Shown piece after piece: positions 5,030 to 24,918 of a stretch of 64,000 nucleotides of DNA (positions are counted from its first letter, which is position 1; each line of letters starts with the position of its first letter). The stretch spans positions 32,001 to 96,000 of the IMG/VR virus record IMGVR_UViG_3300024346_000014; one strand, 5' to 3'. This DNA comes from a virus (lineage: Duplodnaviria > Caudoviricetes). Made by a program: the position numbers and the translations under genes. The notes under the pieces are model-generated. The model was not told where the DNA came from. It ran no database searches and saw only the letters and a list, made by a program, of their open reading frames with translations.

Positions 5030-5826
5030 GTGTTTTTAACAGAATTAGGAATAGAAGTTGCAGCTGTATTCTTTTTGTTATAGAATTCTGTTTTTCCAGC
5101 ATATCTCCAATAAAAACAATTATTAAACCCTTTAGGTTTTCTTTCAGCAATACCTGCTGCTCCTTTAGATGAAGGAGTAGCGGCTAAAAATTCTGTTCTA
5201 CTTCCTACATGTTTACTAGCTGCACTACGGAGTGAACTTGATTTTTGAGCAGATATAGCGTCATTAATTTGAACAGTAGATTCTTCTAAACTTCTTCCTT
5301 TAGATTTACGATATACTTCAATAGCCTCGTCTTTATTATTAATACTATTCCATTTTGCGCCTTTAGCTTTACCATCTTTTACAGGTTGATATTGTCCAGG
5401 TGAAAGTATTACTTTTTGCAATGTTTTTCCATAAGGTTTTCCAGGAGTGTTATATCTGTTGTATATAGCTTGAGCTACATCTGCCATTGCTTGTTTTGAA
5501 CCGCTATAATTTTTAGTGGTATAGTTTTCACAAGCCATTATAACAATTAAAGTCCAATAGTCGGTATTGCCTTGAAGTTTATCTGTTTTTGCTTTAGACA
5601 AGTTTTTTTTATATTGAGCATTTAGATTTTGTATAGAACTAGCGTTTTCTACAGTATGCCAATATTTTTCCCCTGACTTTAGTTGATACTGCCAATTAGG
5701 TGTTTTATCTTTATTTAAGCCCGATCTTCGATATACATATTTTGGTTTAGAAGATATGTAATATTTAGTATACTCGTCTTTATTTTCAAATAAGCGGTTC
5801 CAATTATTATAATTTTTTATGTACAT
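5026..5826 (-). CDS. SleB/Hydrolase_2-like cell-wall hydrolase with leader
   Basis: IMACEN...MADVAQAIYNR...LQKVILSPGQYQPV; leader MYIKNYNNWNRLFE; TATAAATA upstream. Confidence 0.75.
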   Translation of the reverse strand: MYIKNYNNWNRLFENKDEYTKYYISSKPKYVYRRSGLNKDKTPNWQYQLKSGEKYWHTVENASSIQNLNAQYKKNLSKAKTDKLQGNTDYWTLIVIMACENYTTKNYSGSKQAMADVAQAIYNRYNTPGKPYGKTLQKVILSPGQYQPVKDGKAKGAKWNSINNKDEAIEVYRKSKGRSLEESTVQINDAISAQKSSSLRSAASKHVGSRTEFLAATPSSKGAAGIAERKPKGFNNCFYWRYAGKTEFYNKKNTAATSIPNSVKNT

Positions 5827-5903
5827 TTTTAATGATATATTTCTATATTTATTTATACTGGCTTTTTTTCTTAAATAAATAATATTAGCAAAATAATATT
5901 GAT

Positions 5904-6398
5904 ATGGCAGAAATAGCTAGACTTTATCCAAAAATAGATTTTTCAAAAATCAAGTTTTCTAGAATTCCTAAAAATGGTTTTTTAATAGGTTTTAATTCTA
6001 ATAATAACAATAGACTATCTAAAATAGACAGGTCTGGTACTATTACCGTGATAGAATCATTCGAAAGTAAGTCTGATTCTTCTGGTTCTAATTTTAAATT
6101 TTTTGCACAGACGGACGTTCCAAGCGTAGAAAATGATACTGAGTTGCATCATGGTAACATATGGTACGATACAGTTAACGCTATGCCTTATATTTACACT
6201 AAAATAGATGTAGATCATTTCGTATGGCTATCGCTTCAGTCTAATGAAACTGAATCTTCTTTTGAAAGCTTATCTAAAAGTCAAATACTTAGCATAGATC
6301 ATCCGATAGATGGTGAACTTATATATAATAATACAGATCAGGAGTATGTATTCTACAATGGAAGATCTTGGAAAAAAATAATTACTGAAGACTTATAA
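5904..6398 (+). CDS. probable virion structural (fibre-associated) protein
   Basis: GNIWYDT and GELIYNNTDQEYVFYNGRSW beta motifs typical of fibre proteins. Confidence 0.5.
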   Translation: MAEIARLYPKIDFSKIKFSRIPKNGFLIGFNSNNNNRLSKIDRSGTITVIESFESKSDSSGSNFKFFAQTDVPSVENDTELHHGNIWYDTVNAMPYIYTKIDVDHFVWLSLQSNETESSFESLSKSQILSIDHPIDGELIYNNTDQEYVFYNGRSWKKIITEDL

Positions 6399-6399
6399 T

Positions 6400-7026
6400 A
6401 TGGATTTAACTTTATTTCCAAAAAATCCAAGTGTTGGCGAAATAGTAAGAGTAGACGGCAACTCATCAAGGTCTTATAGATGGGATGGCATCACGTGGAC
6501 AGCTTTAAAAAAACCATACGTAGATAGGAAACCCGATGATTATAACCCTAATCAAGGTAGAATGGGTCTTCATAAAAAAATGTCAAAGGACATATTAAAT
6601 GAGAAGCCGGTTATAGATTATTCAACTTCTGCTAATATGGCTAAACTTCAAAATTCTATAGTACGAGGAACTGAATCTATATACATGAACGGTCAACTAT
6701 TATCTGCAGATGACTATAGCATAATTGAAAAAACTATTTATTTTAATTTTGAGATATCTGAAGATTCTTCTTTAATATGTGATTATTCTACATTAACACA
6801 TGTTGAAGTATTTAATGAAATACCGGTGGGTGAAATGGACGGTGTGAATCTAACATTTACATTATTTTCAACACCTGTGCAAAACACTGAGTCGATCTAT
6901 TTTAATGGTGTAAGATTATATGAAGGAAATGATAAAGATTACATAATAATTAATAATATTTTGCAATTATTTTTAGCCCCAACTGAAAAAAGTAGCATAA
7001 AAATAGACTATCATGCTGCAATTTAA
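6400..7026 (+). CDS. probable virion structural protein with duplicated domain
   Basis: FPKNPSVGE...YRWDGITW; two TESIYxNG...DY.I repeats; EIPVGEMDGVNLTFTL. Confidence 0.55.
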   Translation: MDLTLFPKNPSVGEIVRVDGNSSRSYRWDGITWTALKKPYVDRKPDDYNPNQGRMGLHKKMSKDILNEKPVIDYSTSANMAKLQNSIVRGTESIYMNGQLLSADDYSIIEKTIYFNFEISEDSSLICDYSTLTHVEVFNEIPVGEMDGVNLTFTLFSTPVQNTESIYFNGVRLYEGNDKDYIIINNILQLFLAPTEKSSIKIDYHAAI

Positions 7027-7119
7027 AAAAACATTAAAATAATACATTTTTTTAATAAAACAGCCCCTAGAGCGCATATAAATAAACTAGAATAAAGCAA
7101 AAACAATTATAATTATACA

Positions 7120-7371
7120 ATGGAGAACACTGAAAACAATAAAGATTTAGATTTATACACGACAACCGATTTATATTTGTCAGCGTATCTTATAGTAAAA
7201 GGTCACAAGTTTTCAACAGAAAAAAAGGGTAGAAAATCCTTCTTTTCATTCAACAAGACCCCTAATTTAGATGAGCATGTAAATGAGTATTTGATGGGTG
7301 GAGGTTCAACAGAACCACTGCAGTACGCTAATTCCATCAAGAACTTAAAAAACTTGCTATTTAATAGATAA
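7120..7371 (+). CDS. small phage protein (DUF5659-like)
   Basis: YTTTDLYLSAYLIVKG; TATAAATA at about 7077. Confidence 0.55.
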   Translation: MENTENNKDLDLYTTTDLYLSAYLIVKGHKFSTEKKGRKSFFSFNKTPNLDEHVNEYLMGGGSTEPLQYANSIKNLKNLLFNR

Positions 7372-7485
7372 TAACATTTAGGGATTATTTTCTAATATTT
7401 TTTATTTACATATTTTTCAAATTAATTTTTGAAGATAGATTGCACGCATTTTAGGTTTACGTACGCTAAAAAAAACCATAATAAA

Positions 7486-9447
7486 ATGGCAGAAATAAAT
7501 AAAGTAGCTAATTTAATTAGCATAATTAAACAAACCGATCAGCAGTTTTTAGACCCAAAAGGTATAATGTTGAAGGATATTTTAGATGCATCAGGTGCAA
7601 GTGCACAGGATCTTTTTGATATCTTAAACGGAGATAAATCTGTAGAAGGTTCGGTATCTAAAGCAGTATCGGATGCAGTGATATCAATAGTAGACGGTGC
7701 TCCTGGACAATTAGATACTCTTAAAGAGATATCTGACGCACTTGCAGGAGATGAAGCTAGTACAGCAACACTTCTTCAAGCTATTGCAGATAACGCAACA
7801 GCATCTAACAGTAGACATGATAGCTATGTAGCTTCACACAACGAAGATACTGAAGCAAAAGAAGCATCAGTAGAAGCAGCTAGAATAGCAGAAAAAGCAG
7901 CAGTAGAAGCAGCTAGAGTAGCAGAAAAAGCAGCAGTAGAAGCAACTAGAGTAGCAACGGCAGCGTCAATTCTTGAAGAAGAAACTCAGTATAGAGCTAA
8001 TCTTGATCAACAAACAGATGCATTAGCTGACGCAATTCTTGAAGAAGAAACTCAGTACAGAGCTGACTTAGTAACTGATACTGAAGCAAAAGCAGCAGCA
8101 GTAGAAGCAGCTAGAATAGCTGAAAAAGCAGCAGTAGAAGCAGCTAGAGTAGCAACATCAGCGTCAATTCTTGAAGAAGAAACTCAGTATAGAGCTAATC
8201 TTGAAGCGGATAGAGATGAAAAAGAAGCAAATGTTGAAGCAGCTAGAGTAGCAGCAGCAGCAGCGATTCTTAAAGAAGAAGGTGAGTATAGAGCAATTAT
8301 TACTTCAGAACAAGCTTTACAAGATAGCAATCATTCTGCTTTAAAGACAAGTCACGAATCATTGGATACTTTTGTAAGAACCAATTTAGATCTAGATTTA
8401 GATGGAGATGGTGCTTATGATAAATTATCTGAGTTCTTAACATTTGTTAATAACGCCCAGCAAGCTGATGCAGATTCAATTGCTAAAGCTGTTAAAGACG
8501 CAAGTGACGCAAACGTATCACTTAAATCTGAAGTAGATAGTGATATCAGTGATCTTGATGCTAAAGTTGATGAACACCAAATTATTCAAAATGATGAATT
8601 CACTAGAGTTGATGGTAAAATAGACACTGGCTTAACAGCAGCAGATGATAAACTAGAATCAGCTAAAACAGAACTCTCGGCAGTTATTAAAACAACACAA
8701 GATGATTTGTCTGAATTTGTTGGAGAAACCGAAGATCAATTTAAGACGGTTAAATCAGAAACTGCTTTATACAGAGATAAGAATGATCTTGAATGGTCTA
8801 ACTTAAACGATGTACGTGAAGAAGAAGCTACTGAGTACCAAGATTATAAAGACAAAGACAGCGAATGGAAGAAGATGATGCAAAGCACTTTCGAGGACGA
8901 ACAAGCTGTGACTTCAAAAGAAAGATCAATGATGATGGAATCTATTGATCAATTGGTTGATGATAAAAATGAGGATAGTGTCAACAGTATTGCTGAGATA
9001 TTTAATCATATTACAGAAGTGGCTGATTTCAACGTCATGAACATTCGTACTAAAACTGATATTGATTTTACGGCAGACCAAGAACAAGATGGAATGATTA
9101 TTCCAGCCGAATCAATTCATCAATACACTTTAAGTGTTAAAATGAATGGCGTAGAAGTATACGAAGGAGAAGACTACACAACTACATACTTAAATGAAAG
9201 AGTAGTAGGTATATCAATGGAAAGGTCATTAAATGGCATTTACAAAGATGGTGGTAGATTATCTATTTCAGGAAGAGTAGGAGAATTAAAACAATATGAA
9301 TTTAATTTAACTAGCCCTTTTGCTGGACAAGGTAAATTCGTAAGACCTATAGAAGGTGAAAATGATTATGCTTCTGCAATCGGAGACTTCCGTAGTAAGG
9401 AGGTTGCAACATTGGATCCACTAGTAGATCCAAATTCAGAAGGTTAA
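7486..9447 (+). CDS. long coiled-coil fibre-like structural protein
   Basis: ATG at 7486 in A-rich context; DGAPGQLDTLKEISDAL fibre motif; EAARIAEKAAV and ILEEETQYRA repeats. Confidence 0.7.
   Translation: MAEINKVANLISIIKQTDQQFLDPKGIMLKDILDASGASAQDLFDILNGDKSVEGSVSKAVSDAVISIVDGAPGQLDTLKEISDALAGDEASTATLLQAIADNATASNSRHDSYVASHNEDTEAKEASVEAARIAEKAAVEAARVAEKAAVEATRVATAASILEEETQYRANLDQQTDALADAILEEETQYRADLVTDTEAKAAAVEAARIAEKAAVEAARVATSASILEEETQYRANLEADRDEKEANVEAARVAAAAAILKEEGEYRAIITSEQALQDSNHSALKTSHESLDTFVRTNLDLDLDGDGAYDKLSEFLTFVNNAQQADADSIAKAVKDASDANVSLKSEVDSDISDLDAKVDEHQIIQNDEFTRVDGKIDTGLTAADDKLESAKTELSAVIKTTQDDLSEFVGETEDQFKTVKSETALYRDKNDLEWSNLNDVREEEATEYQDYKDKDSEWKKMMQSTFEDEQAVTSKERSMMMESIDQLVDDKNEDSVNSIAEIFNHITEVADFNVMNIRTKTDIDFTADQEQDGMIIPAESIHQYTLSVKMNGVEVYEGEDYTTTYLNERVVGISMERSLNGIYKDGGRLSISGRVGELKQYEFNLTSPFAGQGKFVRPIEGENDYASAIGDFRSKEVATLDPLVDPNSEG
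7845..8300 (+). repeat. intragenic imperfect tandem repeats
   Basis: Repeated gcagtagaagcagctagagtagca and attcttgaagaagaaactcagta units. Confidence 0.9.
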
Positions 9448-9477
9448 TAAGATACTTTAAATAGTATTATTTTCTAT

Positions 9478-9508
9478 AGAGGCGTGTAGCAATACACGCC
9501 TCTTTTTT
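9478..9508 (+). terminator. intrinsic terminator
   Basis: AGAGGCGTGT-agcaat-ACACGCCTCT followed by a T-run. Confidence 0.9.
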
Positions 9509-9540
9509 ATACATAACAATTTTTAGATTTGCTAAACATT

Positions 9541-10128
9541 TTACCTATTACGTTTTAGGTTTTTTAATTTATTAGTAATAATAAACATATTAACGATGTC
9601 TTGTTTTTCTTTACTGGTCTCTGACTCATTAAATTTAAATATGTAAGTACCTGTTACATTGCTTATTTGTTTTTCAAGATCTGCAATATTTATGTCTACT
9701 ATTTTCATATTGGCTTTTGATATTTCATATTCTATTTTAAGTTCATCACATATTACAAATAATTCTAAAGCATTTAAAGTTTCATAAGCCAAGCTGGCTC
9801 TTTTAAATATATCTTCATACTTGTTGGTTTTATCCTTATCTGGATGCGTTAGTTTGCATATATTCCAGTATATTTTCTTGAGACTTTTGTTTTCAGGATC
9901 ACTGTGATTATTTTCTAAAATGCTTTCTTTATCTTCAACGTTTGGATTCTCATTAGAATCAGGTTTATCTGTTCCTAATAATTCCTGTACGTCATCTACG
10001 TTTTTAGCTACTTCATCTAAAAATTCCTGCCTGGATTCTTCTACTATTACCTTTCTCCATTCTAAATCTGATTTTAAAAATCTAAATTTCTGAATTAAAC
10101 TTTTATTTTTTCCGCTTAATGATTTCAT
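9541..10128 (-). CDS. J-domain (DnaJ-like) protein
   Basis: LKKIYWNICKLTHPDK...FKRASLAYE with the HPD motif. Confidence 0.8.
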   Translation of the reverse strand: MKSLSGKNKSLIQKFRFLKSDLEWRKVIVEESRQEFLDEVAKNVDDVQELLGTDKPDSNENPNVEDKESILENNHSDPENKSLKKIYWNICKLTHPDKDKTNKYEDIFKRASLAYETLNALELFVICDELKIEYEISKANMKIVDINIADLEKQISNVTGTYIFKFNESETSKEKQDIVNMFIITNKLKNLKRNR

Positions 10129-10129
10129 T

Positions 10130-10399
10130 CTATAAGTTTATTACGTTTAAAGCCTCTTCTATTTTTTTTAAAACCATATTTCTTTCTTCTGAAGTATTCC
10201 ATGCAAAAACAGTTGGCATTATAGAATTTGCATCAAATAAAACTATTTCATATGACACTGGCGTATCATCTGCTTTTTCTTTAAGAGACTCGTCGTATTC
10301 TGTTTCACTAGGTTTATCAGATCTTATTTCTAACCTATATACGTGTTGAATATTTATTAAATCGTAACCTTCATTGTGTCTAATTTTTAGCCATCTCAT
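10130..10399 (-). CDS. hypothetical protein
   Basis: 89-aa ORF abutting the J-domain gene. Confidence 0.6.
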   Translation of the reverse strand: MRWLKIRHNEGYDLINIQHVYRLEIRSDKPSETEYDESLKEKADDTPVSYEIVLFDANSIMPTVFAWNTSEERNMVLKKIEEALNVINL

Positions 10400-10569
10400 A
10401 TCTAATGTTTACTAATTTTTAAAATCTAAATAACATACCTTTACTTTGCAGTATTTAGATACCCCAGTTTCACCATTAATGTGATCTAAGGGCTTTTTTA
10501 TTTTTACAGATAAGATACAGTATTACGCATAACAATTACATTAGATTTAATTAAATCTCGTGAATTATA

Positions 10570-11142
10570 TTATTTTTTTATTACGTATCTTATTCTGGTT
10601 GTTCCATAAGTAGTAACCCAATCGGGTCCATTTAAACTAACTTGCCCATCAATCTCGTTACTTATAGATTTTCTATAAATAAATACACATCCAGTTTGCA
10701 ATTTATCATATATACCAAGGGTAATTTCATTTGGCATTACGGTGTTATCGCAATAAACCACAGTAGCTTCTCTTATGTCTAGCTTTAAAAAATCGCCTTT
10801 TAGAAAAACTATATTATTTAATTCTTTACAGAATCTAGCTTTGGTATCAAGCGCACCCTGTAGCCGCTTTTCAGAAAGCTCTATCCCTACTGATTTAGCA
10901 CCAGTCTTTAAACCTATATGACAAACCATTTTACCTACTCCGCAACCTAGGTCGTAAAACACAGCTTTTTCATTAAACTTGTCTGGAAATAATTCTAAAA
11001 TAGAATCAGTGGCCTCTTGTGTTATTTCTCCATAAGTGGCGTGAGAACCTGTTTCTTTGAATTTTTTCTTGTCATTCTCAGATAGTAAATATTGAGATTT
11101 ATATGCACTTTGCTTGTATATAGCATCTAGTATTGCTTTCAT
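10570..11142 (-). CDS. class I SAM methyltransferase, DOT1-like
   Basis: TYGEIT, FYDLGCGVGK, GIELSEKR, GDFL, ATVVYCDN. Confidence 0.8.
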   Translation of the reverse strand: MKAILDAIYKQSAYKSQYLLSENDKKKFKETGSHATYGEITQEATDSILELFPDKFNEKAVFYDLGCGVGKMVCHIGLKTGAKSVGIELSEKRLQGALDTKARFCKELNNIVFLKGDFLKLDIREATVVYCDNTVMPNEITLGIYDKLQTGCVFIYRKSISNEIDGQVSLNGPDWVTTYGTTRIRYVIKK

Positions 11143-11199
11143 TATTTATTTATTTGTTTTACTACGGAGTAAACCTGTTGTTGATAGCGGGCTAAACTT

Positions 11200-11508
11200 T
11201 TATTGCCCATTCAATTCCTTTGCGAGGAGCGTATATTGGCCTTGTCCTGCCTCGTTAACGGTGACTTCCAGGGTTGCGCCTTGAAAAACTAGAGTCAGAG
11301 GTTTTCCATAACCACATTGATATTTCCAGCTTGTTTTAAAAGGTGTTGCTTTGTATTCTATCATCTCTGCATGTTGATTAAAACCTGGTGCCTGTCTCAT
11401 CACGGTTAGGTTGGTTAAAGCATCAGCCTTTTGCCATCCACATGCGCTGATTGCAGTTATTAATAATATTCCAGAAATAGCGATTAACGTTTTGATTTTT
11501 CCACTCAT
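11200..11508 (-). CDS. secreted or lipoprotein-like hypothetical protein
   Basis: Hydrophobic N-terminus ending ISAC; GATAAATA upstream. Confidence 0.55.
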   Translation of the reverse strand: MSGKIKTLIAISGILLITAISACGWQKADALTNLTVMRQAPGFNQHAEMIEYKATPFKTSWKYQCGYGKPLTLVFQGATLEVTVNEAGQGQYTLLAKELNGQ

Positions 11509-11544
11509 TATAGTCTTGTTTTTAATCTTTATTTATCTAAACCA

Positions 11545-11763
11545 CTACGGGGCAAGCAACCAGAATTCCACTTGTTGAAAAAATCTATGGGTTTTAGGGT
11601 CTAGTGCATCTGATCCATAATGCTGTATTTTAGGATTAGTTACAGCAATCATTCTCACAACTAGGTCCTGGGATCTACACAGCTCAACGAGCCTAGACAT
11701 TGGGGTCTCCAGGGACTTTGCCTCCCGTATCTCTTCATCTCTTTGATTCCACTTTGAACTCAT
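11545..11763 (-). CDS. hypothetical protein
   Basis: 72 aa, abuts the ART-like gene. Confidence 0.55.
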   Translation of the reverse strand: MSSKWNQRDEEIREAKSLETPMSRLVELCRSQDLVVRMIAVTNPKIQHYGSDALDPKTHRFFQQVEFWLLAP

Positions 11764-12690
11764 CTAGTAACCCGGATATTTTTTAAGTAGCCCTTTAGCA
11801 AATTCCCACATTGCATGCTGCTTGTCACCGTGACCCTGCGTTGTCCAGAACTGCCGTCTGCCTCGGGCAAAAGTTGCGTCATCAGCCCGCTCCATACTAG
11901 CAATAGCGTGTCGGTTTAATATAGCAACTTCATCCCGCTTGTCTAAACTGTTGCCACCAAGTTTTCCATTGTATATTCCAACCACTCCGCCCTGGGTATA
12001 CTCCACTGTTTCTTCCCCTGTTATGTCTAGGTCTAGATGAGGTAGATACCTGTCGCCGGGTCTCAGCTTTACCCTGTAAAGTGATGGCCAAAAACCTCGT
12101 TTAACCCCGGCTAGCACGCTATAAAAAGGCCAGTATCTCTTGTCACCAACCCGGAGTTGATATATGTCACGCCCAGTGAATCCCCACTCCTTAGCAAAAC
12201 TCTCTACTAGGCTATAGGGTTTACCGTAACGGTTTGCTTCAACCAGTGCTGCCTCCTCCTCTAGGGAATCTCTCCGCATCCGGTCTACAATGGCTTCACC
12301 CTCCCCTAAGAGTCGTTGAGCAGATTCACCTCCACTGATCCATGTAAAACTATATTGATAGGCATTAGAGATATCGTTTGTAATATAGAATCCATATCTA
12401 GCACCAATTCCAGAATTACCAATCGCCTCCTCACCGCTAAATAGTTTAACGTTACCCCGGGTTAAATCTGGCATATGACTACCATGGTAATAGTATCCAT
12501 CCGGGCTGGCCTGCATTATCTCCGCCCCAGTAAGAGTACCTCCACGGCTACCTCTCTCTGGTTCCTCCTCTGTTGCGCTCTGTATTAACCTTTGTCTAAG
12601 ACTCTGTTTAGGTTTAGGAACAAGTAGCGTATCTACTTTCATTGTAGGCCATGATTCGTTTAGTTTAAGATATGTCTTTAGGTATTTCAT
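11764..12690 (-). CDS. ADP-ribosyltransferase-fold protein (H-Y-E type) with leader
   Basis: YYYHGS...YGFYITNDISNAYQY...DEVAIL; leader MKYLKTYLKLNES. Confidence 0.6.
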   Translation of the reverse strand: MKYLKTYLKLNESWPTMKVDTLLVPKPKQSLRQRLIQSATEEEPERGSRGGTLTGAEIMQASPDGYYYHGSHMPDLTRGNVKLFSGEEAIGNSGIGARYGFYITNDISNAYQYSFTWISGGESAQRLLGEGEAIVDRMRRDSLEEEAALVEANRYGKPYSLVESFAKEWGFTGRDIYQLRVGDKRYWPFYSVLAGVKRGFWPSLYRVKLRPGDRYLPHLDLDITGEETVEYTQGGVVGIYNGKLGGNSLDKRDEVAILNRHAIASMERADDATFARGRRQFWTTQGHGDKQHAMWEFAKGLLKKYPGY

Positions 12691-12712
12691 TACTGGATTA
12701 TTTATCTAAACT

Positions 12713-13055
12713 GCTACGGAGTAAAACAAGAGTCCGGGGCCGTGAAGACCCTGCCCTCGCCCGTTTATTATAATAATAATACTTCTATACCTAGAGAGAA
12801 ATAAAAAAAAGATCAGGATAAACCTGCTTTAATAACCTCTATAAGAAAACTTCCACTACGGAGTAATCTCTAGAACCAGAAACGGGTAGATCTAGACAGG
12901 AACCCGACCCAACCCTATAAGATAACCTCTACCCGCTGGCCACTACGGAGTAAAACCCTACCCTATACCTGCCCAATCGCGACCCCCTTGGTGTTACCCA
13001 AAATGAGGTTTCTGTGTAAGGTCAAGCCTTGGGGACTCCCAATCCACTACGGAGT
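12713..13055 (+). repeat. cluster of four (A/G)CTACGGAGT direct repeats upstream of the recombinase-like gene
   Basis: Copies at 12713 (G variant), 12855, 12942 and 13046, each followed by AA; AT-rich patch at 12765-12810. Confidence 0.95.
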
Positions 13056-13169
13056 AACCCAGGAGGGGTGTTTCCCGGGTAGGATCGGTTGCGGATACAG
13101 ATTACACTAGTACCCATAGGTTACCTAAGCACCGGTTATGGATATATAAACTTAAATAACACAATAGAT

Positions 13170-13775
13170 ATGACTAAGAGACAGGCTTTAGAAGTAATTG
13201 GGTGTCACTCAACCACTTTAAAGAGGTATATACAGAAGGGATATATCCGTGTAACCAAGTTACCTAACGGGAGATATAACTATTACGAGGATGATGTGTA
13301 TACTATGGTGGGTAAGAGGTTAAAGCGCGAGCATTGGACTGTTTTATATAGCCGGGTGGATTCAAGCAGTCAGGTTAATAAGAAGAAGATGGAGGAGCAA
13401 AAGAGGTTGGCTTACGAGTGGAGTACCAAGAGGGGGCTTACCTTTGACAAGGTTTATGAGGATTGGAGGCCCGCTTCAGATTACAATAGACCTCAGCTTC
13501 TACAGTTGATAGAGGATATATTAAAAAAGCGGGTCGATAATGTAGTAATTGAGACGAGGTGCCGCTTGAGCCGGTTTGCCTTTGGTATCTTTGATATGTT
13601 ATTTAAATATCACGGAGTGGCCCTAATAGTGATGAACCAGTGGATTACAGATCCCCATTACCAGGATGAGCAATCTGCTGACTTGGCCCGGGTCATGAAA
13701 CAATCCGGGTTGGAGAGACTCGAAGGTAATATGTCACAGGTGCCTGAACAGCCTGTTCGTAGACGCAAGGTGTAA
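13170..13775 (+). CDS. IS607-family TnpA-like protein (MerR-type HTH plus serine recombinase domain), catalytic Ser replaced by Asp
   Basis: QALEVIGCHSTTLKRY...LPNGRYNY HTH; YSRVDSSSQ instead of YARVSSxxQ; VVIETRCRLSRF; ATG at 13170 preferred; no tnpB adjacent. Confidence 0.85.
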   Translation: MTKRQALEVIGCHSTTLKRYIQKGYIRVTKLPNGRYNYYEDDVYTMVGKRLKREHWTVLYSRVDSSSQVNKKKMEEQKRLAYEWSTKRGLTFDKVYEDWRPASDYNRPQLLQLIEDILKKRVDNVVIETRCRLSRFAFGIFDMLFKYHGVALIVMNQWITDPHYQDEQSADLARVMKQSGLERLEGNMSQVPEQPVRRRKV

Positions 13776-13854
13776 TTACCTCTGTGTTTGCGATTTACCT
13801 CCGTGTTACTAGTCAACGAGATTCACACACGTGCCCGTAACTATTATCACCCCC

Positions 13855-13880
13855 AAAAACACCACTGGCCTGTGGTGTCT
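13855..13880 (-). terminator. hairpin or terminator closing the minus-strand array
   Basis: aaaaACACCAC-tggcct-GTGGTGT. Confidence 0.55.
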
Positions 13881-13920
13881 CGGGTTATTTGACTTTACCC
13901 TATAAAATCAAACTCAACGT

Positions 13921-15081
13921 TTATAATGTTTGCAAGTTAGCATACTGAAGATCTAGTCCAGTAGTAATTGCTTTATTAAGTAATCTACCACCTTGTGATT
14001 TAAGTGACTCTGGATTAACTATATCAAACTCAGACTTATTACTACCCAAGAAAGTAAGATTGTTAATCACATCCCAGACTGACATGCCTGTTTTAATATT
14101 ACTCTTTTGGCGATCATTCATTTTATATGGATCAAGACCTGTTTTAGCCAATCGCTGTGCACTAGAAGAGAACGCAGGGAAATAACTAGTAACCAGTTTT
14201 CTATAATCCTTAGCCGACTCAGCATCTGGAAACTGCTGCATAATTAAAGCTATACCTGATTCCAATTCTTTAAAGCTTGCACGGGTAGATTGACTTGAAG
14301 CTATTGCTTCTCTAAAACCCCGTGGAACAAAACCAGTTGCCTCAATGCGCTTTATCTGGTTTAAGAATTGATCAATGTTTCCTGGCTTTAAACTCTTTAG
14401 ATTAAACTTTTCACCTACATCGGCAAGGTTACCTGCAACTGCACCGTTACCTAAACCTATTCTCATACCATTAGCACATATCAACCTCTGGTTATAGAGT
14501 TCTAATCCAGTAGTAGTGGGCGTAGTTTTAATAGTAAAACCAAAGTTAAACTCCTCGTCTGCACCCAAGCCTTCCATCTTAATAGGTGATGAATTAATAA
14601 AATTAAAAGTAGTTAAGCCTCCATGACTACCGGCTGATTGTAGACCCATGTTAGGGTTATCGTTGAGTATCTTTTCAGATATATCGCAAATAGTCTCCAT
14701 TGATAACCTGCCACTACTGCTGCCTTTAATTATGTTATTAACTTCTCTCTTCTCTGGATCAGCTATCAATTGATATTGCTGTTGAGCATTATTTGACCTA
14801 ATAGATTTATACTGCTTGATTGCCTTGATGAGTGTAGCATAGATTTGCTCATCATCGTTCTTCATAAAACTAGTAGCTAGTCCACTATTTACATTTACTG
14901 TTTTGGCCAACTTTGCCCAAAAGCCTTTACTCACTGGGACCAACTGTCCCTGTACCTTAATGAAACCGTCTTTGATTCCATTTGTTGTAACATCTATTTG
15001 TTGTAGCGTTACTGTTTTAGTCATGGCATCCCTTGAGATAAGATCCCGTTTTAAAATATCAAATTCTTTTTGTTGTATCAT
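13921..15081 (-). CDS. DUF932/DUF945-like protein
   Basis: GLELYNQRLICANGM motif and C-terminal SVWDVINNLT. Confidence 0.6.
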   Translation of the reverse strand: MIQQKEFDILKRDLISRDAMTKTVTLQQIDVTTNGIKDGFIKVQGQLVPVSKGFWAKLAKTVNVNSGLATSFMKNDDEQIYATLIKAIKQYKSIRSNNAQQQYQLIADPEKREVNNIIKGSSSGRLSMETICDISEKILNDNPNMGLQSAGSHGGLTTFNFINSSPIKMEGLGADEEFNFGFTIKTTPTTTGLELYNQRLICANGMRIGLGNGAVAGNLADVGEKFNLKSLKPGNIDQFLNQIKRIEATGFVPRGFREAIASSQSTRASFKELESGIALIMQQFPDAESAKDYRKLVTSYFPAFSSSAQRLAKTGLDPYKMNDRQKSNIKTGMSVWDVINNLTFLGSNKSEFDIVNPESLKSQGGRLLNKAITTGLDLQYANLQTL

Positions 15082-15109
15082 TGCTTTTTTTTATGTTATT
15101 AATATTATA

Positions 15110-16243
15110 CTAATCCTGGTTGATAAGATTAACTATTTCAAAATCTGTCTCCTGCCCCTCTTCTTGTTCCACTACGGAGTTATCCTCAATGGTTTCATTT
15201 CCCATGCCTAAGAATACTCTATTAAAAGTTTCCTCTGCCTCACGCTTACGTTCCAACTCAGTAGACTCCATTTGTTTCACAGTTTGCGTAGATTCAAAGC
15301 GTTCCTTATCATACTTAATCTTGCCATCTTCAAGAGTATAGTAAAGTGGTTTATTAATATTACTTCCACCTCTACGGTTCTTTGAGAACTCTAAGTAACG
15401 TGCACCTTCTGTGTCAAATCTAAACTCTAACATTGCAGTGGTAGCATGCTTGAGATATGTACTACCTACATAGGTTCCTCCTTTGGTAAGGTGTTGAATT
15501 GCCAAGACTGCTATACCCATTTTATCTGCTGCGCTAATCATAATGTTAGTTAACCAGGTTTCAGCGTATGTAGCTTTCCACCCAAGTATATCTTTAAACT
15601 TTACCACCATGTCTTGAAAACTATCAAGTAGTACAACATCATAGTCTCCACTAAATGCAACTTTCTCTAACACCTGGTCCATGTTGCCTGTATGGATATA
15701 ATCCATCATTAACAGGGTTGGAATATCCCCAATGATAGGTGTCTTTTCTTTATAGAAATATATGTCATTACGGGTCATCTCTGAGCTTACATAGAGTATA
15801 TTAGCATCAGGGTTATTCTGCTTAAGATTAGCTATAACATCTAACATCACTGTACTTTTACCTACTCCGGATTCTCCAACAACCACGGTAACCGTTCCAG
15901 TATATTGGCCTCCGCCTTCTTCATGATCTGATAAAAGCTCGTCAATATAAGTATTAGACTTAAGTAATCTAAAATTAGGAAATTCCAAATCATTAATTGC
16001 CACTACGGAGTCAGCCGCATCTATTACATTTGTCTCTACTTGTTCAGGTGTTTCTTGAGATTCACTCTTTATATCTTTCATAATACCATTAAGCATTCCA
16101 TATGAAATGGTGTGTTCAGTTACATCACGCTTTAGTTTGTCATATAGGTCTACCATGCTGGTTCCCTCTGGGTAACGTGTGAAGTTGTCATTAAACCACT
16201 GACGAATGGATTGCTCTTTTTTTCCTCCTTTAATCTCTATCAT
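15110..16243 (-). CDS. RecA-superfamily ATPase, RadA/Sms-like core
   Basis: Walker A GESGVGKST, LYVSSE, Walker B VLLDSFQ, HLTKGGTYVGSTYLKH, KNRRG. Confidence 0.85.
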   Translation of the reverse strand: MIEIKGGKKEQSIRQWFNDNFTRYPEGTSMVDLYDKLKRDVTEHTISYGMLNGIMKDIKSESQETPEQVETNVIDAADSVVAINDLEFPNFRLLKSNTYIDELLSDHEEGGGQYTGTVTVVVGESGVGKSTVMLDVIANLKQNNPDANILYVSSEMTRNDIYFYKEKTPIIGDIPTLLMMDYIHTGNMDQVLEKVAFSGDYDVVLLDSFQDMVVKFKDILGWKATYAETWLTNIMISAADKMGIAVLAIQHLTKGGTYVGSTYLKHATTAMLEFRFDTEGARYLEFSKNRRGGSNINKPLYYTLEDGKIKYDKERFESTQTVKQMESTELERKREAEETFNRVFLGMGNETIEDNSVVEQEEGQETDFEIVNLINQD

Positions 16244-16289
16244 TTTTGTTTTTATTTTATAGGGTTACGGTTAATATACTAAATTATTT

Positions 16290-16781
16290 TTAAATGTTAT
16301 CAGAAAGTTCCTTGAATATTTCCTGCTCTTTACTGCTTAGTTTTTCAAAGCCTCCACCTCTCTCGTTCATTAAGTCAAGTAGATTATCTAAAGTAAAAGA
16401 ATCTGTAAATTGAGTTTTACCTTCGTCGCTTGATTCTATGTTTAAATGTTTTTTGAAAGCTTTACCCCATTCTAAAAATTGAGACATATCATTGTTATAT
16501 GCAAAACTAGTAGGATCTATTTTAAAGACCATTACTGGAAATACATTTCCATCTTTGCCTTCGCTATTTTCAATTAAGCCTATGCTAATTTCTTGAAACC
16601 TATTAGATATTTCTCGAGAGCTTAATCTAGATTTAAGTATAGTTATGATACCTGACATTCCCGGTTGATCTGGAAACACTGGTCCACCTATAGGCTCGCC
16701 TTCTGATATATCATTAACTAACTTAAACTCCTCTTCAGTAGGTATTGGGATTCCTAATCTAATTATAATATAATCTTCCAT
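16290..16781 (-). CDS. hypothetical protein, C-terminal DUF6576-like helix pair
   Basis: TLDNLLDLMNERGGGFEKLSSKEQEIF. Confidence 0.6.
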   Translation of the reverse strand: MEDYIIIRLGIPIPTEEEFKLVNDISEGEPIGGPVFPDQPGMSGIITILKSRLSSREISNRFQEISIGLIENSEGKDGNVFPVMVFKIDPTSFAYNNDMSQFLEWGKAFKKHLNIESSDEGKTQFTDSFTLDNLLDLMNERGGGFEKLSSKEQEIFKELSDNI

Positions 16782-16913
16782 AGTAAATTATTTTTATTTG
16801 TTATAATGCTAATATACTAACTATTTACATAAAATAAAACTTTTGTGTAATAAAGTTGACCTTTGTAAAATTTGCCAGTACTAACAACACAAAGGTAACA
16901 CTAGATTGTATGC

Positions 16914-16945
16914 AAAAAAAGAGCCGGCTAATTACACCGGCTCTC
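16914..16945 (-). terminator. intrinsic terminator after the tRNA cluster
   Basis: GAGAGCCGG-tgtaattag-CCGGCTCT plus T-run on minus. Confidence 0.9.
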
Positions 16946-17037
16946 ATCATAACAATCGGGACTTGCTTTCACAAGCCCCTAAACAAAAATAATTATGGTG
17001 TATCCTGGAAGATACATCATGATGTCAGATGACATCG
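16946..17037 (-). ncRNA. candidate structured RNA in the tRNA trailer, antisense to the early-gene start consensus
   Basis: Three hairpins plus CATAATTATTTTTGTTT (complement of 16981-16997). Confidence 0.35.
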
Positions 17038-17111
17038 TGGGCCCACCAGGGCTCGAACCTGGGACTTTCTGATTATGAGTCAGATACTCTAACCAACTGA
17101 GTTATAAGCCC
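17038..17111 (-). tRNA. tRNA with CAT anticodon (probably Ile2, lysidine-type)
   Basis: GGGCTTATAACTCAGTTGGTTAGAG-TATCTGA-CTCATAA-TCAG...GGTTCGAGCC; no encoded CCA. Confidence 0.9.
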
Positions 17112-17146
17112 ATACCAAAGGAGGCATTTCTCCCGGTCTGGTTTAA

Positions 17147-17223
17147 TGGTACACCCATCAGGATTCGAACCTGAGACCTACTGCTTAGAAGGCAGTTGCT
17201 CTATCCAGCTGAGCTATGGGTGC
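17147..17223 (-). tRNA. tRNA-Arg(TCT)
   Basis: GCACCCATAGCTCAGCTGGATAGAGC...CTTCTAA...GGTTCGAATCC...GGGTGTACCA. Confidence 0.95.
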
Positions 17224-17240
17224 ACATCGTAAAAGCTTAG

Positions 17241-17325
17241 TACTCGAGGCCGGGATCGAACCGGCACGGCCATAATGGCCACAGGATTTTAAGTCCGGCG
17301 CGTCTACCTATTCCGCCACTCGAGC
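17241..17325 (-). tRNA. tRNA-Leu(TAA)
   Basis: GCTCGAGTGGCGGAATAGGTAGACGC...CTTAAAA, long variable arm, GGTTCGATCCC. Confidence 0.95.
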
Positions 17326-17341
17326 TTAGGCTTTTAAATAT

Positions 17342-17719
17342 TTAATACCAAACTGCTCCATGTCTTAATACCGCTTCAGGTAATTCATATATAGGCGATT
17401 TAGTATCTTTATCTTGGAAGTATCCTGCTTTATATGGATTATAAGTACAAACCTTTTTAAAACGTGGAGTTACTCCTTTTTTATACTCTTCTGCACGTGG
17501 AGCAAATATAAAAGCATGTACGTTTTTACGTTTCTCTTTTATAACCCTTTGCCTCCCTGTTTCGTTGACTAACATCTTAGCATCCTTTACGTGCAATGCA
17601 AATGAATGTTTAAATACTCTCCAACCCGCTTTATCCTGGTCCCATGCTTGGACACTATAGCATTTCTTATGAAGATTAAAGTATATTTTAAATCCTTTAT
17701 CTAGATTCCAATTTCTCAT
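17342..17719 (-). CDS. conserved phage hypothetical protein
   Basis: YFNLHKKCYSV...GRQRVIKEKRKNVHAF...YNPYK motif set. Confidence 0.75.
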   Translation of the reverse strand: MRNWNLDKGFKIYFNLHKKCYSVQAWDQDKAGWRVFKHSFALHVKDAKMLVNETGRQRVIKEKRKNVHAFIFAPRAEEYKKGVTPRFKKVCTYNPYKAGYFQDKDTKSPIYELPEAVLRHGAVWY

Positions 17720-17721
17720 AA

Positions 17722-17931
17722 TTAAGATTTTACGATTTCCAATACTTCTTCCCTTGCTGTTTCGCCCTTTAAGCTTATGATTTCTTCAAAGCACTGTTTT
17801 GCTACTTTAAAATCTGTTGACATTGAACCTGATATCAAGTCTCCATCTACCCTTGTAAAGTAATATGTTTCTAAGTCGTTAGTGGTAATCTTAGTCTCTT
17901 TACAGAATGCATATTCTTTTTCCTTACTCAT
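17722..17931 (-). CDS. hypothetical early protein
   Basis: Directly downstream of an array promoter. Confidence 0.7.
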   Translation of the reverse strand: MSKEKEYAFCKETKITTNDLETYYFTRVDGDLISGSMSTDFKVAKQCFEEIISLKGETAREEVLEIVKS

Positions 17932-17999
17932 AATTAATTTGTTTTTTGTTATATAGCTAATATACTAAAAAATAATCAATTTTTAAACAAAATTTTAAA

Positions 18000-18629
18000 T
18001 TAAATATTGCATTGAGCTCTAACGGGTACTCTCTTTGAGATAGTATTATACCATTGTGTCCAACCTATGGTATCCACATCGGTACGCTTTCTTTTTCCAT
18101 GCTTCATAAATTTACTCAGGCTAATTTTTGAGGATTCTTTTAATAATCCATTTACTTTATCACCATCCATTTGCCATACGCCTATTATTCCTCCGTTCGA
18201 CCATTTATCTGTTGCATCGCATACTACTAAATAAAGTGGCATGTCTTCTTCATGGTATGCTCCATTTTGATATGTAGCTTTTATATAATTAAGGATAGGT
18301 GTTCTATAACCCACTGTTAAACTTCCTGCTGTGTTCATGAATATACCTTTGGTCTTGATATAACAGGTTTTTAATTCTACCTTTGTGAACTTTCCACGTT
18401 TCATCATTATGGAATCTTTTGCTGTGAGATCTGACAAAACAAGAGTGCCGCAAACTATTGCGGCATAAATATCATGGTATAATTTACCATATTCTATCGT
18501 ACTTAGTTCTTTGGGTTTTTTATCGAACAAATAATATTTACTAGGTGTAAATGTGTTTGACTTTATTTGCTTATTAAATAATTTAGTATTATGAGCAATT
18601 CTTCTGTCAAACTCAAGCTGTGTAATCAT
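18000..18629 (-). CDS. hypothetical protein, possible PD-(D/E)xK nuclease
   Basis: AKDSIM...KVELKT spacing. Confidence 0.45.
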   Translation of the reverse strand: MITQLEFDRRIAHNTKLFNKQIKSNTFTPSKYYLFDKKPKELSTIEYGKLYHDIYAAIVCGTLVLSDLTAKDSIMMKRGKFTKVELKTCYIKTKGIFMNTAGSLTVGYRTPILNYIKATYQNGAYHEEDMPLYLVVCDATDKWSNGGIIGVWQMDGDKVNGLLKESSKISLSKFMKHGKRKRTDVDTIGWTQWYNTISKRVPVRAQCNI

Positions 18630-18632
18630 GTA

Positions 18633-19434
18633 TTATTTAACCACAGAATCCTTATCAAGTTTTAAATATTCTTCAATACAATTACCCATCTGTTCAATTG
18701 AGGACTCTATGTTTCGTAACTCTTCTATAAGCCATTCTAGATTCCACATTTCTTGAGCCACTTTATAAGTCTTTTCTGATTTTTCAAGAAGCTTAAGGGC
18801 TTCACTATATTCTTTCCAACCATTATCTCTTAGTGGAATGTCATAGTATTCATGAAGCCTTGCTTGAAATCTCCTTAATTCTAATATCTTATCCTTAACT
18901 GATTTAGGAGTACTGGCTTTAGCAATTGTTTCAAATGTATGCATCTTTATTTAGTTTTAGTTGTGTCTGAAAATCCTTCTTTAAGGTCTTGCCATTGCTG
19001 ACTTTCTTTTACTTTACCAGGTAACTTACTAGTTTCCTTGAAAGTTTTACCAATACCTTTTCCTATATGCTTATAATGATTTGTTTCTTGCAACTCCCCT
19101 TTTTGATATATCCCGAGGTATCCAAAGCATATAACAGCTACGCATGCTACTATGAAAATTTTAAATATTCCCTTTATCATTTTACTAGAGTTTCATCGAT
19201 TTTAAAATTATTTAAATCTAAACCGGGTCTTGGTGATATGACTACCATTACAGATGAATCATTGTTGAATCCTATTCTTCCATCATCATATGCTTCTTGA
19301 TGCCAGTGTGTCCATTTAGGAGGAACCCCTTCTGGTATATCACTTGGCCTTTTTAAATCATTGCTAGTGCTATTGCTACATGCAACAATTGTAGTTAATA
19401 ATAATATCGATAATATGTTTTTTAAATACTTCAT
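18633..19434 (-). CDS. three short ORFs (18633-18944; 18947-19180 membrane; 19177-19434 lipoprotein-like)
   Basis: Tightly coupled ORFs behind an array promoter; IVAC lipobox. Confidence 0.65.
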
Positions 19435-19490
19435 AACTGGTGTTTTATTAATACTAATATACTAAATTTAATTGGCAAGTAAAAACTTAT

Positions 19491-20007
19491 CTAAAACCGT
19501 TTAACCTTTGTGATGATTATTCTGGATTCTTCCGGATTATTCTTTTCTCCTATGAAAACTATACCCTCGTCTCTAACGGTGTCAGCTGTTTTTCTGTAAG
19601 TATGGGTGGACTCCTTTATTCCGGCCATCCATAGCCCTATGTTATATGCTTTTTTTACTGTTCCACATACCGCAGTCGTATCCCAAAAAGTGTTTACTAC
19701 GGAGTGATCTTCCCCTGGCACTATGTCTTTACTTATTGTTACTAAGTATAATATCTTCTTTGATTCCATCTATTATAATTTTTATTTTACTACATTTTTC
19801 ATACTCCTCTAAGATTGTAAAATGATCTTTCATTTTTTCTAATGCATCTATCTTTTCAGAAACACTATACTTTTCACTTAACATTTCATCAGGACATCTT
19901 ATTAATATTTTATATATTACTTTATAAAAAACATCTTTATTATGGTCCTTTAAAAAAGAAAGCAATTTTAAAGTATCAGTATTTTGTATTAATTTTTTCC
20001 AATCCAT
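19491..20007 (-). CDS. two short ORFs (19491-19769; 19729-20007 with UVR-like EEYEKC motif)
   Basis: Overlapping ORFs; EEYEKC also occurs in 27597..27917. Confidence 0.65.
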
Positions 20008-20525
20008 TAGCTAGCTTCTTTACATTTTTGTAAATACCTAGGTAATAATTGAGTCCAATTCTGGGCATAATATCCATTATCTTCTTTTATATAAGTTGAC
20101 ATTATATCACCTGTACCTTCATGGTCTAATTTAAATACATAGTGTCCAAGCTCATGATATATTAAAGCTTTAAGTTGATCTCTTTCCATAGGCCTGTTTA
20201 GAATCCATATTGTTCTAGTACTTAAATCGGATCTGCCCATTATATCTGTAGTGGATTCGCTGTTTAAGAAACCGTATGGTATACTATCTACTATCAATAT
20301 TCGGTCTACTGTTTTAATCTCTGTATCAGCATCTATTCCTGCATTATTAATATCCTGTTTCCATTCAGAAACAATTGACTCTACTTTACTAGAATTATAT
20401 ACTGGATCCTGTTCATTATTGATAACAGCCCATACAGAATATCCTATCAATATTCCTATAGTAATCAGTGTACCCAATGTTTTGAGTACGTTTGGTTTAT
20501 CTTGTATGTATATTCCTTTTGCCAT
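20007..20525 (-). CDS. membrane-anchored zinc metallopeptidase-like protein
   Basis: N-terminal TM; HELGHYVFKLDH plus Met-turn DIMS. Confidence 0.75.
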   Translation of the reverse strand: MAKGIYIQDKPNVLKTLGTLITIGILIGYSVWAVINNEQDPVYNSSKVESIVSEWKQDINNAGIDADTEIKTVDRILIVDSIPYGFLNSESTTDIMGRSDLSTRTIWILNRPMERDQLKALIYHELGHYVFKLDHEGTGDIMSTYIKEDNGYYAQNWTQLLPRYLQKCKEAS

Positions 20526-20891
20526 CTTTATTATTATACTAATTTATTCCCAGTTAAAAAAGGTTTTTCCTAGTTCTTCTACAAAAAGAAGACCACTTTC
20601 AGCCATTTGTAGATATATTAAATTTACCTCGTCCTGACTCGTTGATCTATAATGTCTAATATCTCTTAAATAATCCTTTTTTCTTTGAGCAATAAAGTCT
20701 TCTATGTCCTGTAACTTTGCTTTATGTTGCATATTTAAATTTAAATGGATATACAGAGGATCTCTGTTTTAAGGTTTCAGATCACTAGCGCCTGTGTTGT
20801 CCCCTCCTCTGTATATCGCCTGCTTTGTTATTTTAAAACCTTTCTATATTATATATTATACTAAAATATTACACAAAAGTATAATTATATG

Positions 20892-21257
20892 TTATGATAT
20901 TACGTTTTCAACTAGGTCATCTATAGAACCATATGCACTCTTGACATGCCAGTTGTTGTTTTTAGTAAATAGGTATCCATACTCTTCAATGTCACTGCTA
21001 TAGTAATCATCTACTGATGCATGAACATTTGGTTCCTCTAATTCCTCTCCTCTTGATTCACCGTATTTTTCATAATAGGATTCATCTACTGTAGATCTGC
21101 TACCTTCGTCTATAAAGTCTTCCACTTCTCTCGTTGAATTAAAACTTCGATTTAATAAGTCTTGTCCTACTCCATCTGGATATCCATCCCAATGACAGTA
21201 TACTGATTTAACTGTTCCGTTGTCTAATTCCACTGCAATTCTTGATCTTGTTGCCAT
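20892..21257 (-). CDS. conserved phage hypothetical protein
   Basis: MATRSRIAV...SVYCHWDGYPDGVG...EYGYLF. Confidence 0.8.
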   Translation of the reverse strand: MATRSRIAVELDNGTVKSVYCHWDGYPDGVGQDLLNRSFNSTREVEDFIDEGSRSTVDESYYEKYGESRGEELEEPNVHASVDDYYSSDIEEYGYLFTKNNNWHVKSAYGSIDDLVENVIS

Positions 21258-21326
21258 AATTATTTTGTTTTTGTTATTAATTGTTATATAGCTAATATAC
21301 TAAATTACTTACACAAAATAAAACTT

Positions 21327-22504: not shown

Positions 22505-22582
22505 AATTATTTTGTTTTTGTTATAATACTAATATACTAAATTAATTACACAGAATATAATTTTTATGTAAATAGTTTACCT

Positions 22583-23312: not shown

Positions 23313-23431
23313 AATTAATTTGTTTTTGTTATATAGCTAATATACTAAATATATACACAAAATAAAACTATTGTGCTAACTAGTTTACCTTTATGTTTGT
23401 GAATAATAGTAGTTGACAAACCTCTGTTCAT

Positions 23432-23513
23432 AAAAAAATACCCAGCTATATGCTAACCGGGTATCAATAAACAAAAAAATACCCAGCTATATGCTAACCG
23501 GGTATCAATAAAC
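23432..23513 (-). repeat. perfect 41-bp tandem duplication of a terminator
   Basis: aaaaaaatacccagctatatgctaaccgggtatcaataaac x2. Confidence 0.95.
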
Positions 23514-23589
23514 AAAATCTACAATAGTAGCTCTTGAATAGTTATTATACTAAATGTTTACTACGGAGTAGCCTTTATCTAAATATTTT

Positions 23590-24909: not shown

Positions 24910-24918
24910 GATATTATT

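Follow-up and report, generated by a model that had tools for sequence, protein, structure and literature searches.

The window analysed here, a stretch of 64,000 nucleotides corresponding to bases 32001-96000 of a 125,649-bp IMG/VR virus record (IMGVR_UViG_3300024346_000014) rated 49% complete, carries on its plus strand a gene for a 201-residue protein, P0001, which its sequence and predicted fold identify as an exapted TnpA transposase of the IS607 family that retains its winged helix-turn-helix (HTH) and recombinase fold together with the C-terminal helix and the arginines that bind phosphate. The serine nucleophile has been lost, and the protein is therefore one that can bind DNA but not cut it. 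A short oriented DNA word, CTACGGAGT, forms an array upstream of the gene and recurs across the neighbouring gene block. P0001 may bind this candidate word and thereby regulate both its own gene and a block of early/middle genes, a reading to which a probability of about one half is assigned.

13170..13775, plus strand: gene for the 201-residue nucleophile-less IS607-TnpA-like protein P0001 (stop codon 13773-13775)
13170..13319, plus strand: N-terminal winged HTH, residues 1-50 (AlphaFold2 model, sub-threshold MerR_1/HTH_17 matches)
13335..13724, plus strand: serine-recombinase-type catalytic-domain fold and C-terminal helix, residues 56-185 (Pfam Resolvase, Foldseek)
13359..13361, plus strand: codon GAT, Asp64 at the catalytic serine position (phmmer alignment, relatives' column)
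12714..13055, plus strand: array of four CTACGGAGT copies (12714, 12856, 12943 and 13047) upstream of the gene
5225..32581: span of all 16 copies of the word, with the minus-strand reading TtACTCCGTAGTRR

An IS607-type TnpA without its nucleophile

The open reading frame (ORF) listed by the program at this locus runs from 13089 to 13775 on the plus strand and begins with TTG; because every homologue begins with MTK, the start was placed at the ATG at 13170, which gives the product of 201 residues. A preliminary description of this DNA had considered it to be the only credible plus-strand gene between about 9.5 and 41 kb, and this is borne out: the minus strand carries almost all ORFs of the region, and the two other plus-strand ORFs of at least 120 residues (20251..20637 and 24992..25363) both overlap minus-strand ORFs.

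The AlphaFold2 model of P0001, with a mean predicted local distance difference test (pLDDT) score of 89, begins with a helix-turn-helix, a beta hairpin and a helix and continues through an alpha/beta domain into a long helix at the C-terminus, the winged HTH being formed by helices 3-10 and 14-23, strands 28-30 and 36-38 and helix 40-47. The best matches of P0001 in the PDB, in both sequence and fold, are IS607-family TnpA structures (3lhk, 6dgc, 3ilx, 3lhf and 6dgb; TMt 0.73-0.82 with Foldseek), and the domain order of an N-terminal winged HTH, a catalytic domain and a C-terminal helix is that of the TnpA proteins of IS607, IS1535 and ISC1926. The Pfam model Resolvase (PF00239) matches with an E-value of 3.6e-11 (43.8 bits against a gathering cut-off of 23.3) and the PHROG match is phrog_6620, 'transposase'. 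Thus, the serine-recombinase domain of the preliminary description is present and so is a winged HTH, but the MerR-type models reach the latter only below their cut-offs (MerR_1 with 17.4 against 21.6 bits and MerR with 13.5 against 28.2 bits, and HTH_17 likewise); with a sub-cut-off HTH and a C-terminal part of recombinase fold, P0001 does not qualify as a MerR-family regulator. Prediction of a P0001 homodimer gave a score of 0.37, the mark being 0.42.

In the phmmer alignment with PDB chain 3lhf, Asp64 (codon GAT) of the sequence Y-S-R-V-D lies opposite the serine of YARVSS, and CRLSR lies opposite DRLVR, both as had been noted previously. The DxxSG loop, which had been described as lost, is in fact partly retained: its S-G is replaced in DWRPAS, opposite DIGSGL, but the loop aspartate is kept. 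The absence of the serine extends well beyond this protein. All those of the 16 homologues found by a word-index protein search that cover the nucleophile column lack it (D, N or K), as do all 24 full-length relatives that were fetched (37-100% identity), in which D, N, K, G, A or P takes its place, and six homologues found through the DNA word (L102, L128, L135 and L137-139; 37-45% identity) have G, A or P. An exhaustive protein search returned 692 matches at E-values up to 1e-3, and in an alignment of 155 proteins, composed of P0001 and the matches of both searches that are 140-300 residues long, 90 rows have S in the column, 20 have N, 13 have D and 10 have A, the remaining 22 holding other residues. 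The rows without serine crowd among the nearest matches, the closest proteins having D (13), N (5) or K (1). A quick tree, from which rows outside 170-260 residues and rows lacking either domain were excluded, placed the family inside a group of 49 rows, 43 of which have no serine (SH-aLRT value of 93, which is not a bootstrap).

The remainder of the active site is better preserved. Tyr60, Arg62, Arg107 and Arg132 are invariant across 48 active and inactive sequences, and Arg135 is invariant in the 17 sequences of the close-family alignment A1. The active-site arginines of serine recombinases, which we take to be Arg8, Arg68 and Arg71 in gamma-delta resolvase, are thus retained in the P0001 family (Arg62 and Arg132 over the 48 sequences). 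No alternative nucleophile is conserved, since the column varies among D, N, K, G, A and P and the following residue is S, T, G, E or K in the relatives. As judged from these alignments, the loss of the serine is a trait of the family and not the mark of a broken copy; it is ancient, and the position is free to vary. The question of whether the substitution is conserved among related phages, which had been raised at the outset, is thus answered for the loss itself, the replacing residue being variable.

Purifying selection acts on both domains. For pairs involving the window's gene with unsaturated synonymous divergence (dS), the ratio of nonsynonymous to synonymous substitution (dN/dS) is 0.044-0.072 over the whole gene, 0-0.035 for the HTH and 0.06-0.11 for the catalytic-like domain, dS being saturated between clades; neutral evolution of the gene, which had been left open, is contradicted by these values. 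In four marine DNA metagenome runs, used as contigs, neither a variant within the gene nor an empty site or joint across it was found; the runs listed for this sequence included none of RNA. One copy of the gene is present in the window's record and one in each of the records of five relatives. As previously stated, no tnpB is adjacent: the adjoining ORFs of 308 and 386 residues have no TnpB-type or other match in Pfam or PHROG. Downstream of the gene, the 386-residue protein and a P-loop ATPase recur as neighbours both in a phage with a 49%-identical homologue and in a distant clade, and neighbours are unchanged among phages that are 25-49% identical, the unannotated 308-residue ORF (11764-12690) differing from the divergent neighbour found in the relatives. 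A scan of 185,579 species genomes with a pattern derived from A1 revealed no relative, although, being pattern-based, it could have missed distant ones, and viral scans with P0029, P0031 and P0019 for the contexts of other distant homologues found none. The gene is single-copy, syntenic and not part of a tnpA-tnpB element; it is not mobile.

P0001 therefore resembles the IS607-family transposases in its domain order, in its conserved active-site tyrosine and arginines and in the short asymmetric direct repeats near its gene, but differs from them in having no nucleophilic serine, in having cysteine for the aspartate of DRLxR (in the close clade), in the loss of S-G, in scoring below the cut-off of the NCBIfam IS607 transposase model NF033518 (100.1 against 110 bits) and in the lack of tnpB, of multiple copies and of mobility. 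Three features that define a transposase, namely the nucleophile, the curated family score and mobility, are thus missing.

An oriented word in the window and in related phages

CTACGGAGT occurs as 16 exact copies in the window, against 0.08 expected, all on the plus strand; neither the opposite strand nor the rest of the record (61.6 kb) contains it. The four upstream copies of the preliminary description are indeed found, in a GC-rich divergent intergenic region of 480 bp (12691-13169), and its claim that the word is dispersed beyond the gene holds as well, the remaining copies lying at 5225, 11162, 15172, 16003, 19697, 21695, 23561, 25557, 26411, 29223, 30865 and 32573. Besides the four copies of the array, nine of the 16 fall close to where the upstream minus-strand gene stops (-16 to +30 nt from its stop codon) and three lie well inside ORFs. 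A gene for a DOT1-like class I methyltransferase (10570-11142, minus strand) lies directly downstream of the copy at 11162.

An alignment of 93 sites gave the logo rrnTtACTCCGTAGTRRm in the minus-strand reading; the 10-bp word would be palindromic but for a single symmetric pair. It is accompanied by no second conserved block at any spacing, no fixed -10 element and no stem covariation. Word-bearing sequences include TTACTCCGTAGTAA and TTACTCCCTAGTCC, and the form with a flipped centre has the complement ACTACGGAGT. The flanks of the word are only modestly GC-rich, a signal driven by the arrays. In the array, the 36 motif columns are identical in the window and in two relatives (L004 and L006), compared with 64% of all intergenic columns.

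The exact 9-mer is present in all 17 loci that had been collected through the gene (85 copies, with about 1.3 expected), and wherever enough upstream DNA is available the 600 bp before the gene contain two to five copies. It is on the strand of the gene in 16 of these loci. In the remaining one, L017, it is flipped, so that all six copies are antisense to the neighbouring genes, one of them 24 nt before the ATG of the gene itself; since a binding site tolerates flipping better than a promoter does, this locus supports the interpretation of the word as a binding site. Conversely, a search of viral contigs with a 14-mer returned nine loci with at least three copies, seven of which have a homologue in the locus or its record. 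In three genomes (G002, G003 and G004) a block of 19-25 kb contains 14-18 copies on one strand, the gene lying close to one of its ends; in G003 the opposite strand carries an additional copy.

A related word is found in a sister clade. Among 17 viral loci with P0078-type homologues, CTAGGGAGT, which differs from CTACGGAGT by one base, ranks first among the strand-specific 9-mers; it forms arrays of two to five copies with a period of 57-58 bp, 180-415 bp upstream of the gene. A further CTAGGGAGT copy lies inside the gene at +150/159, where it encodes L-G-S of the linker, and pairs of copies 57 bp apart occur inside or after the gene. In the near-complete genomes G007 (270 kb, 10 copies) and G008 (253 kb, 13 copies), every copy is confined to 8-11 kb starting at the array beside the gene.

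Intragenic copies of the word are found at three different places in three clades. In the homologues of L135, L137, L138, L139 and L128 the copy encodes G-T-T-E-S directly after the former nucleophile, while the copy at L017:1333 encodes G-L-R-S-P in the linker and that at L015:10304 encodes P-S-T-E-Y.

Several other roles for the word were considered and rejected. As an RNA hairpin the core could pair (ACT-CCGT-AGT), but over the 93 sites the flanks pair no more than base composition predicts. A polar signal of the Chi or KOPS type does not agree with the confinement of the copies to 8-27 kb and to gene borders. An integron-like cassette array, suggested by the frequent position of the word after stop codons, is at odds with the conserved gene order and site positions and with the dead recombinase. 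A classical sigma-70 promoter would have a fixed -10 element, which is missing, and a scan of 12600-14000 found one promoter-like site compared with 2.8 expected.

The second motif of the preliminary description, TACCTCYGTG, occurs seven times in the window (0.12 expected), including the two copies after the stop codon at 13777 and 13796, which were found as described. It had been proposed as a second region-wide cognate site, and this proposal did not stand. The copy at 26945 is the 5' edge (RAGGTAAACT, minus strand) of a repeated cassette of about 95 nt and that at 29632 overlaps the GGAGG just before a minus-strand ATG, and for this reason the motif is not a single signal. The two copies that follow the stop codon, in which TTTACCTCnnnG is repeated at a distance of about 19 bp, are kept in eight of the ten D-clade loci aligned.

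13776..13807, plus strand: two copies of TTACCTCYGTGTT, spaced by 19 bp, immediately behind the stop codon and distinct from the first motif
13859..13878: perfect hairpin ACACCACTGG/CCTGTGGTGT between convergent genes, with a minus-strand T-run

The hairpin is probably a two-way terminator; the site scan lists a plus-strand site that overlaps it.

A proposed mechanism and its alternatives

In the work on IS607-family TnpA (PMC6188088), 9-bp direct repeats are bound by one unit per repeat and two DNAs are bridged, IS1535 having four such 9-bp motifs, phased by about 10 bp, within 20-60 bp of the element end. P0001 probably functions in the manner of that half of TnpA which, in the description of IS1535, binds DNA and forms the synapse. 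Its cognate site would be the asymmetric, nearly palindromic word TtACTCC(G/C)TAGT, an assignment that we hold to be slightly on the probable side. Several units of P0001 would load on the array beside their own gene, and in many relatives also on an intragenic copy, with auto-regulation of the gene by occlusion or looping as the presumed outcome. P0001 would also occupy the dispersed copies of the same orientation, between the terminator of one gene and the start of the next, in an early/middle block that includes the gene for a sigma factor, and would turn these units on or off in the course of infection. Regular spacing with unlike spacers, a location beside the gene for a DNA-binding protein and further copies within that gene argue for protein-loading sites rather than promoters. 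Membership of the family is well supported, and the assignment of the site to P0001, which is attractive, makes the word a candidate. A wider scenario is more tentative and rather doubtful: in a whole lineage of marine jumbo phages, an IS607 transposase may have become a non-cutting protein that loads on polar sites, namely the array at its own gene and the same-oriented words behind terminators, and its pairing of DNA through multiple dimers may fold or gate the early/middle block, so controlling the sigma gene and the timing of infection.

25573..26292, minus strand: phage sigma-70-family factor (phrog_351, 7e-39; Sigma70_r2, 5e-14; region 4 weak)
15110..16243, minus strand: syntenic P-loop ATPase (AAA_25; RepA/DnaB/UvsX-like) with two copies of the word whose positions are conserved in relatives
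12765..12815: conserved AT-rich stretch within the intergenic region (alignment A2)

Several observations weigh against the proposed role of P0001. Its repeats are spaced by 87-142 bp or 57-58 bp and spread over kilobases, whereas those of IS1535 (PMC6188088) are phased by about 10 bp and compact at the element end. The presumed recognition helix varies (STLKRY, NTLKSW, NACRKW and NGLRKW) among phages that use the same 9-mer. The 140-kb genome G006, rated 100% complete, has nine copies of the word and a sigma gene but no homologue of P0001; its block, however, runs off the start of the contig. The expected co-occurrence of motif and gene holds in the 17 loci found through the gene and in seven of the nine found through the motif. 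Since all of these phages are kin, co-occurrence is in any case not independent evidence, and the sigma factor, which lies inside the block, co-occurs with the word as well as the TnpA-like gene does. The latter point leads to the most serious alternative, in which the word is a promoter, or an extended -35/-10 element, for the phage sigma factor (25573-26292) or the host RNA polymerase, and the dead TnpA merely shares the block and does something else. A sigma homologue lies inside the motif block in the window and in all seven other records tested (8/8), some with a second paralogue, and in the window copies of the word flank the sigma gene, 7 nt after its stop codon and 119 nt before its start. 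The copies of each genome keep strictly to a single strand, and in all genomes but L017 this is the strand that codes for the block; such an orientation suits a promoter. Terminator-like hairpins, which begin 13-90 nt upstream at 25 of 197 sites but at 2.7% of random positions (four of the 197 sites have one just downstream), and the position of 12 of 76 copies 19-26 nt before an ATG, which is the mode, suit a promoter or a promoter-proximal site. At 12714, 21695 and 23561 the -35-like TTTACT is followed 17 nt on by AATAAT or TATAAT, and hexamers close to TATAAT show a weak peak at +20/+21 (seven each of 155 sites). Most copies, however, have no -10 element at the right distance, nor is a second element conserved at any spacing; arrays of four or five copies with a period of 57-58 bp in GC-rich DNA that would fire away from the gene cannot sensibly be promoters, and copies also occur inside ORFs, the TnpA-like gene included. 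All six copies of L017 are antisense to the genes around them, two near-complete genomes do not contain the word in their other 240+ kb, not even at the structural genes, where sigma promoters would be expected, and the mid-GC relatives have a separate sigma-70-like cassette some 100 nt downstream of the word. On balance, a promoter is unlikely, although it deserves more weight than the explanations that follow.

A replication origin or partition module, with the word as an iteron and the dead TnpA as an origin- or centromere-binding, DNA-pairing protein acting with the AT-rich stretch and the RepA/DnaB-like ATPase, would account for regularly spaced direct repeats next to the gene of a DNA-binding protein, for the conservation of the AT-rich stretch in the same intergenic region and for the synteny of the ATPase in both clades; the paired-end complex of TnpA (PMC6188088) also resembles handcuffing. 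The copies are, however, spread over 8-27 kb and mostly at gene boundaries. Iterons and centromeres, on the other hand, are compact. The matches of the ATPase to primase/helicase, DnaB-like and UvsX-like PHROG families are weak (4e-11 for the best named family), and the GC skew of the window simply tracks gene orientation and provides no evidence for an origin, leaving such a module improbable. Even less credence can be given to an IS607-type element that is either decaying, as a pseudogene drifting after the loss of the serine, or still active with another nucleophile. P0001 is closest in sequence to IS607 transposases, its gene lies in a GC-rich island of an AT-rich genome and short repeats flank it on both sides; yet the dN/dS of 0.05-0.07 with dS saturated between clades, the single copy per genome with the same neighbours in phages that are 25-49% identical, the lack of a conserved alternative nucleophile in the former nucleophile column or the next and the lack of a relative in the pattern scan of species genomes all speak against such an element. 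The low dN/dS, together with the absence of variation, empty sites and joints in the four runs, makes a pseudogene or an enzyme with a displaced nucleophile very unlikely.

Other known systems offer partial parallels to the proposed binding of the word by P0001. MotA of phage T4 is a DNA-binding protein that reads an oriented box of about 9 bp near -30 of middle promoters, which are interleaved and co-oriented with early units. Like the MotA box, the word at 12714, 21695 and 23561 spans about -35 to -21 relative to the start suggested by the -10-like hexamer; unlike MotA, to which P0001 has no homology, most copies lack a -10 element, and the arrays and intragenic copies have no counterpart in that system. 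Iteron-binding initiators and centromere binders of the ParR/TubR type likewise have regular arrays of one orientation upstream of the gene of the presumed binder, which allow auto-regulation, but the fold of P0001 is unrelated to theirs and its word is also scattered over the block of 8-27 kb. The recruitment of transposases as DNA-binding proteins is well known for DDE enzymes; a search of the literature retrieved no described case for a serine transposase, nor any account of an IS607 TnpA that lacks its nucleophile or of this word, and a search on promoter motifs of jumbo phages found nothing relevant. The family may be viewed as a natural separation-of-function variant of TnpA, with site binding and synapsis but no chemistry, and the candidate site together with its one-base variant in the sister clade makes specificity directly testable.

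Promoter-like cassettes, neighbouring genes and the source phage

A minus-strand cassette of about 95 nt (RAGGTAAACT..TTGCACA..TTTTTATTTGTG..TATATTTATACTAT-AACAAAAACAAAATAATT-ATG) precedes at least nine small genes and is probably an early promoter with its leader. The mid-GC relatives have their own version (TTGTCA, 17 nt, TATATT), which occurs more than ten times per locus. In addition, a GC-rich non-coding element follows the word in these relatives (L049:2523, L144 (G006) minus strand 8260, L071:13356 and L106:1949); it is conserved, contains no ORF and reads CCCCTGCCCGCC..GAGACC..GCCATGG, and may represent a small RNA or a further site bound by a protein. The analysis exposes a regulatory layout of uncultured marine phages of 250-270 kb, in which early-promoter cassettes and a phage sigma factor are joined by a second oriented signal.

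26293-26390, 24772-24870 and 22505-22600, minus strand: examples of the cassette (within 21200-33050)
13921..15081, minus strand: syntenic 386-residue neighbour, DUF932-like by ESM Atlas features only
17037-17325, minus strand: three tRNA genes, Met-CAT, Arg-TCT and Leu-TAA (Rfam)

The 386-residue neighbour resembles viral clusters that bear DUF932 (ESM Atlas score 0.97, with the family on 15-25% of cluster members), a model-based likeness that is to be taken as a lead and not as a finding. Besides the three tRNA genes, Rfam at the gathering score found nothing in the whole window, and on 12500-14000 nothing credible at E-values up to 1.

With genes for a DNA polymerase, helicase, ligase, portal, large terminase, baseplate wedge protein and alpha-glucosyltransferase, the record is that of a large tailed phage; its source is an uncultured marine jumbo phage. 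Searches of isolated phages found no near relative of the record at the DNA level and, at the protein level, only canonical IS607-type matches of less than 30% identity. The window has a GC content of about 31% with two richer islands, 11000-14000 and 36000-38000, of 41-45%; the first spans the TnpA-like gene, its array and the 308-residue ORF. The alpha-glucosyltransferase (G000:97671-99095, outside the window; phrog_2888, 7e-71) hints at glucosylated, modified DNA. Finally, the phage encodes a protein resembling PAS-domain histidine kinases (44222-45883, plus strand).

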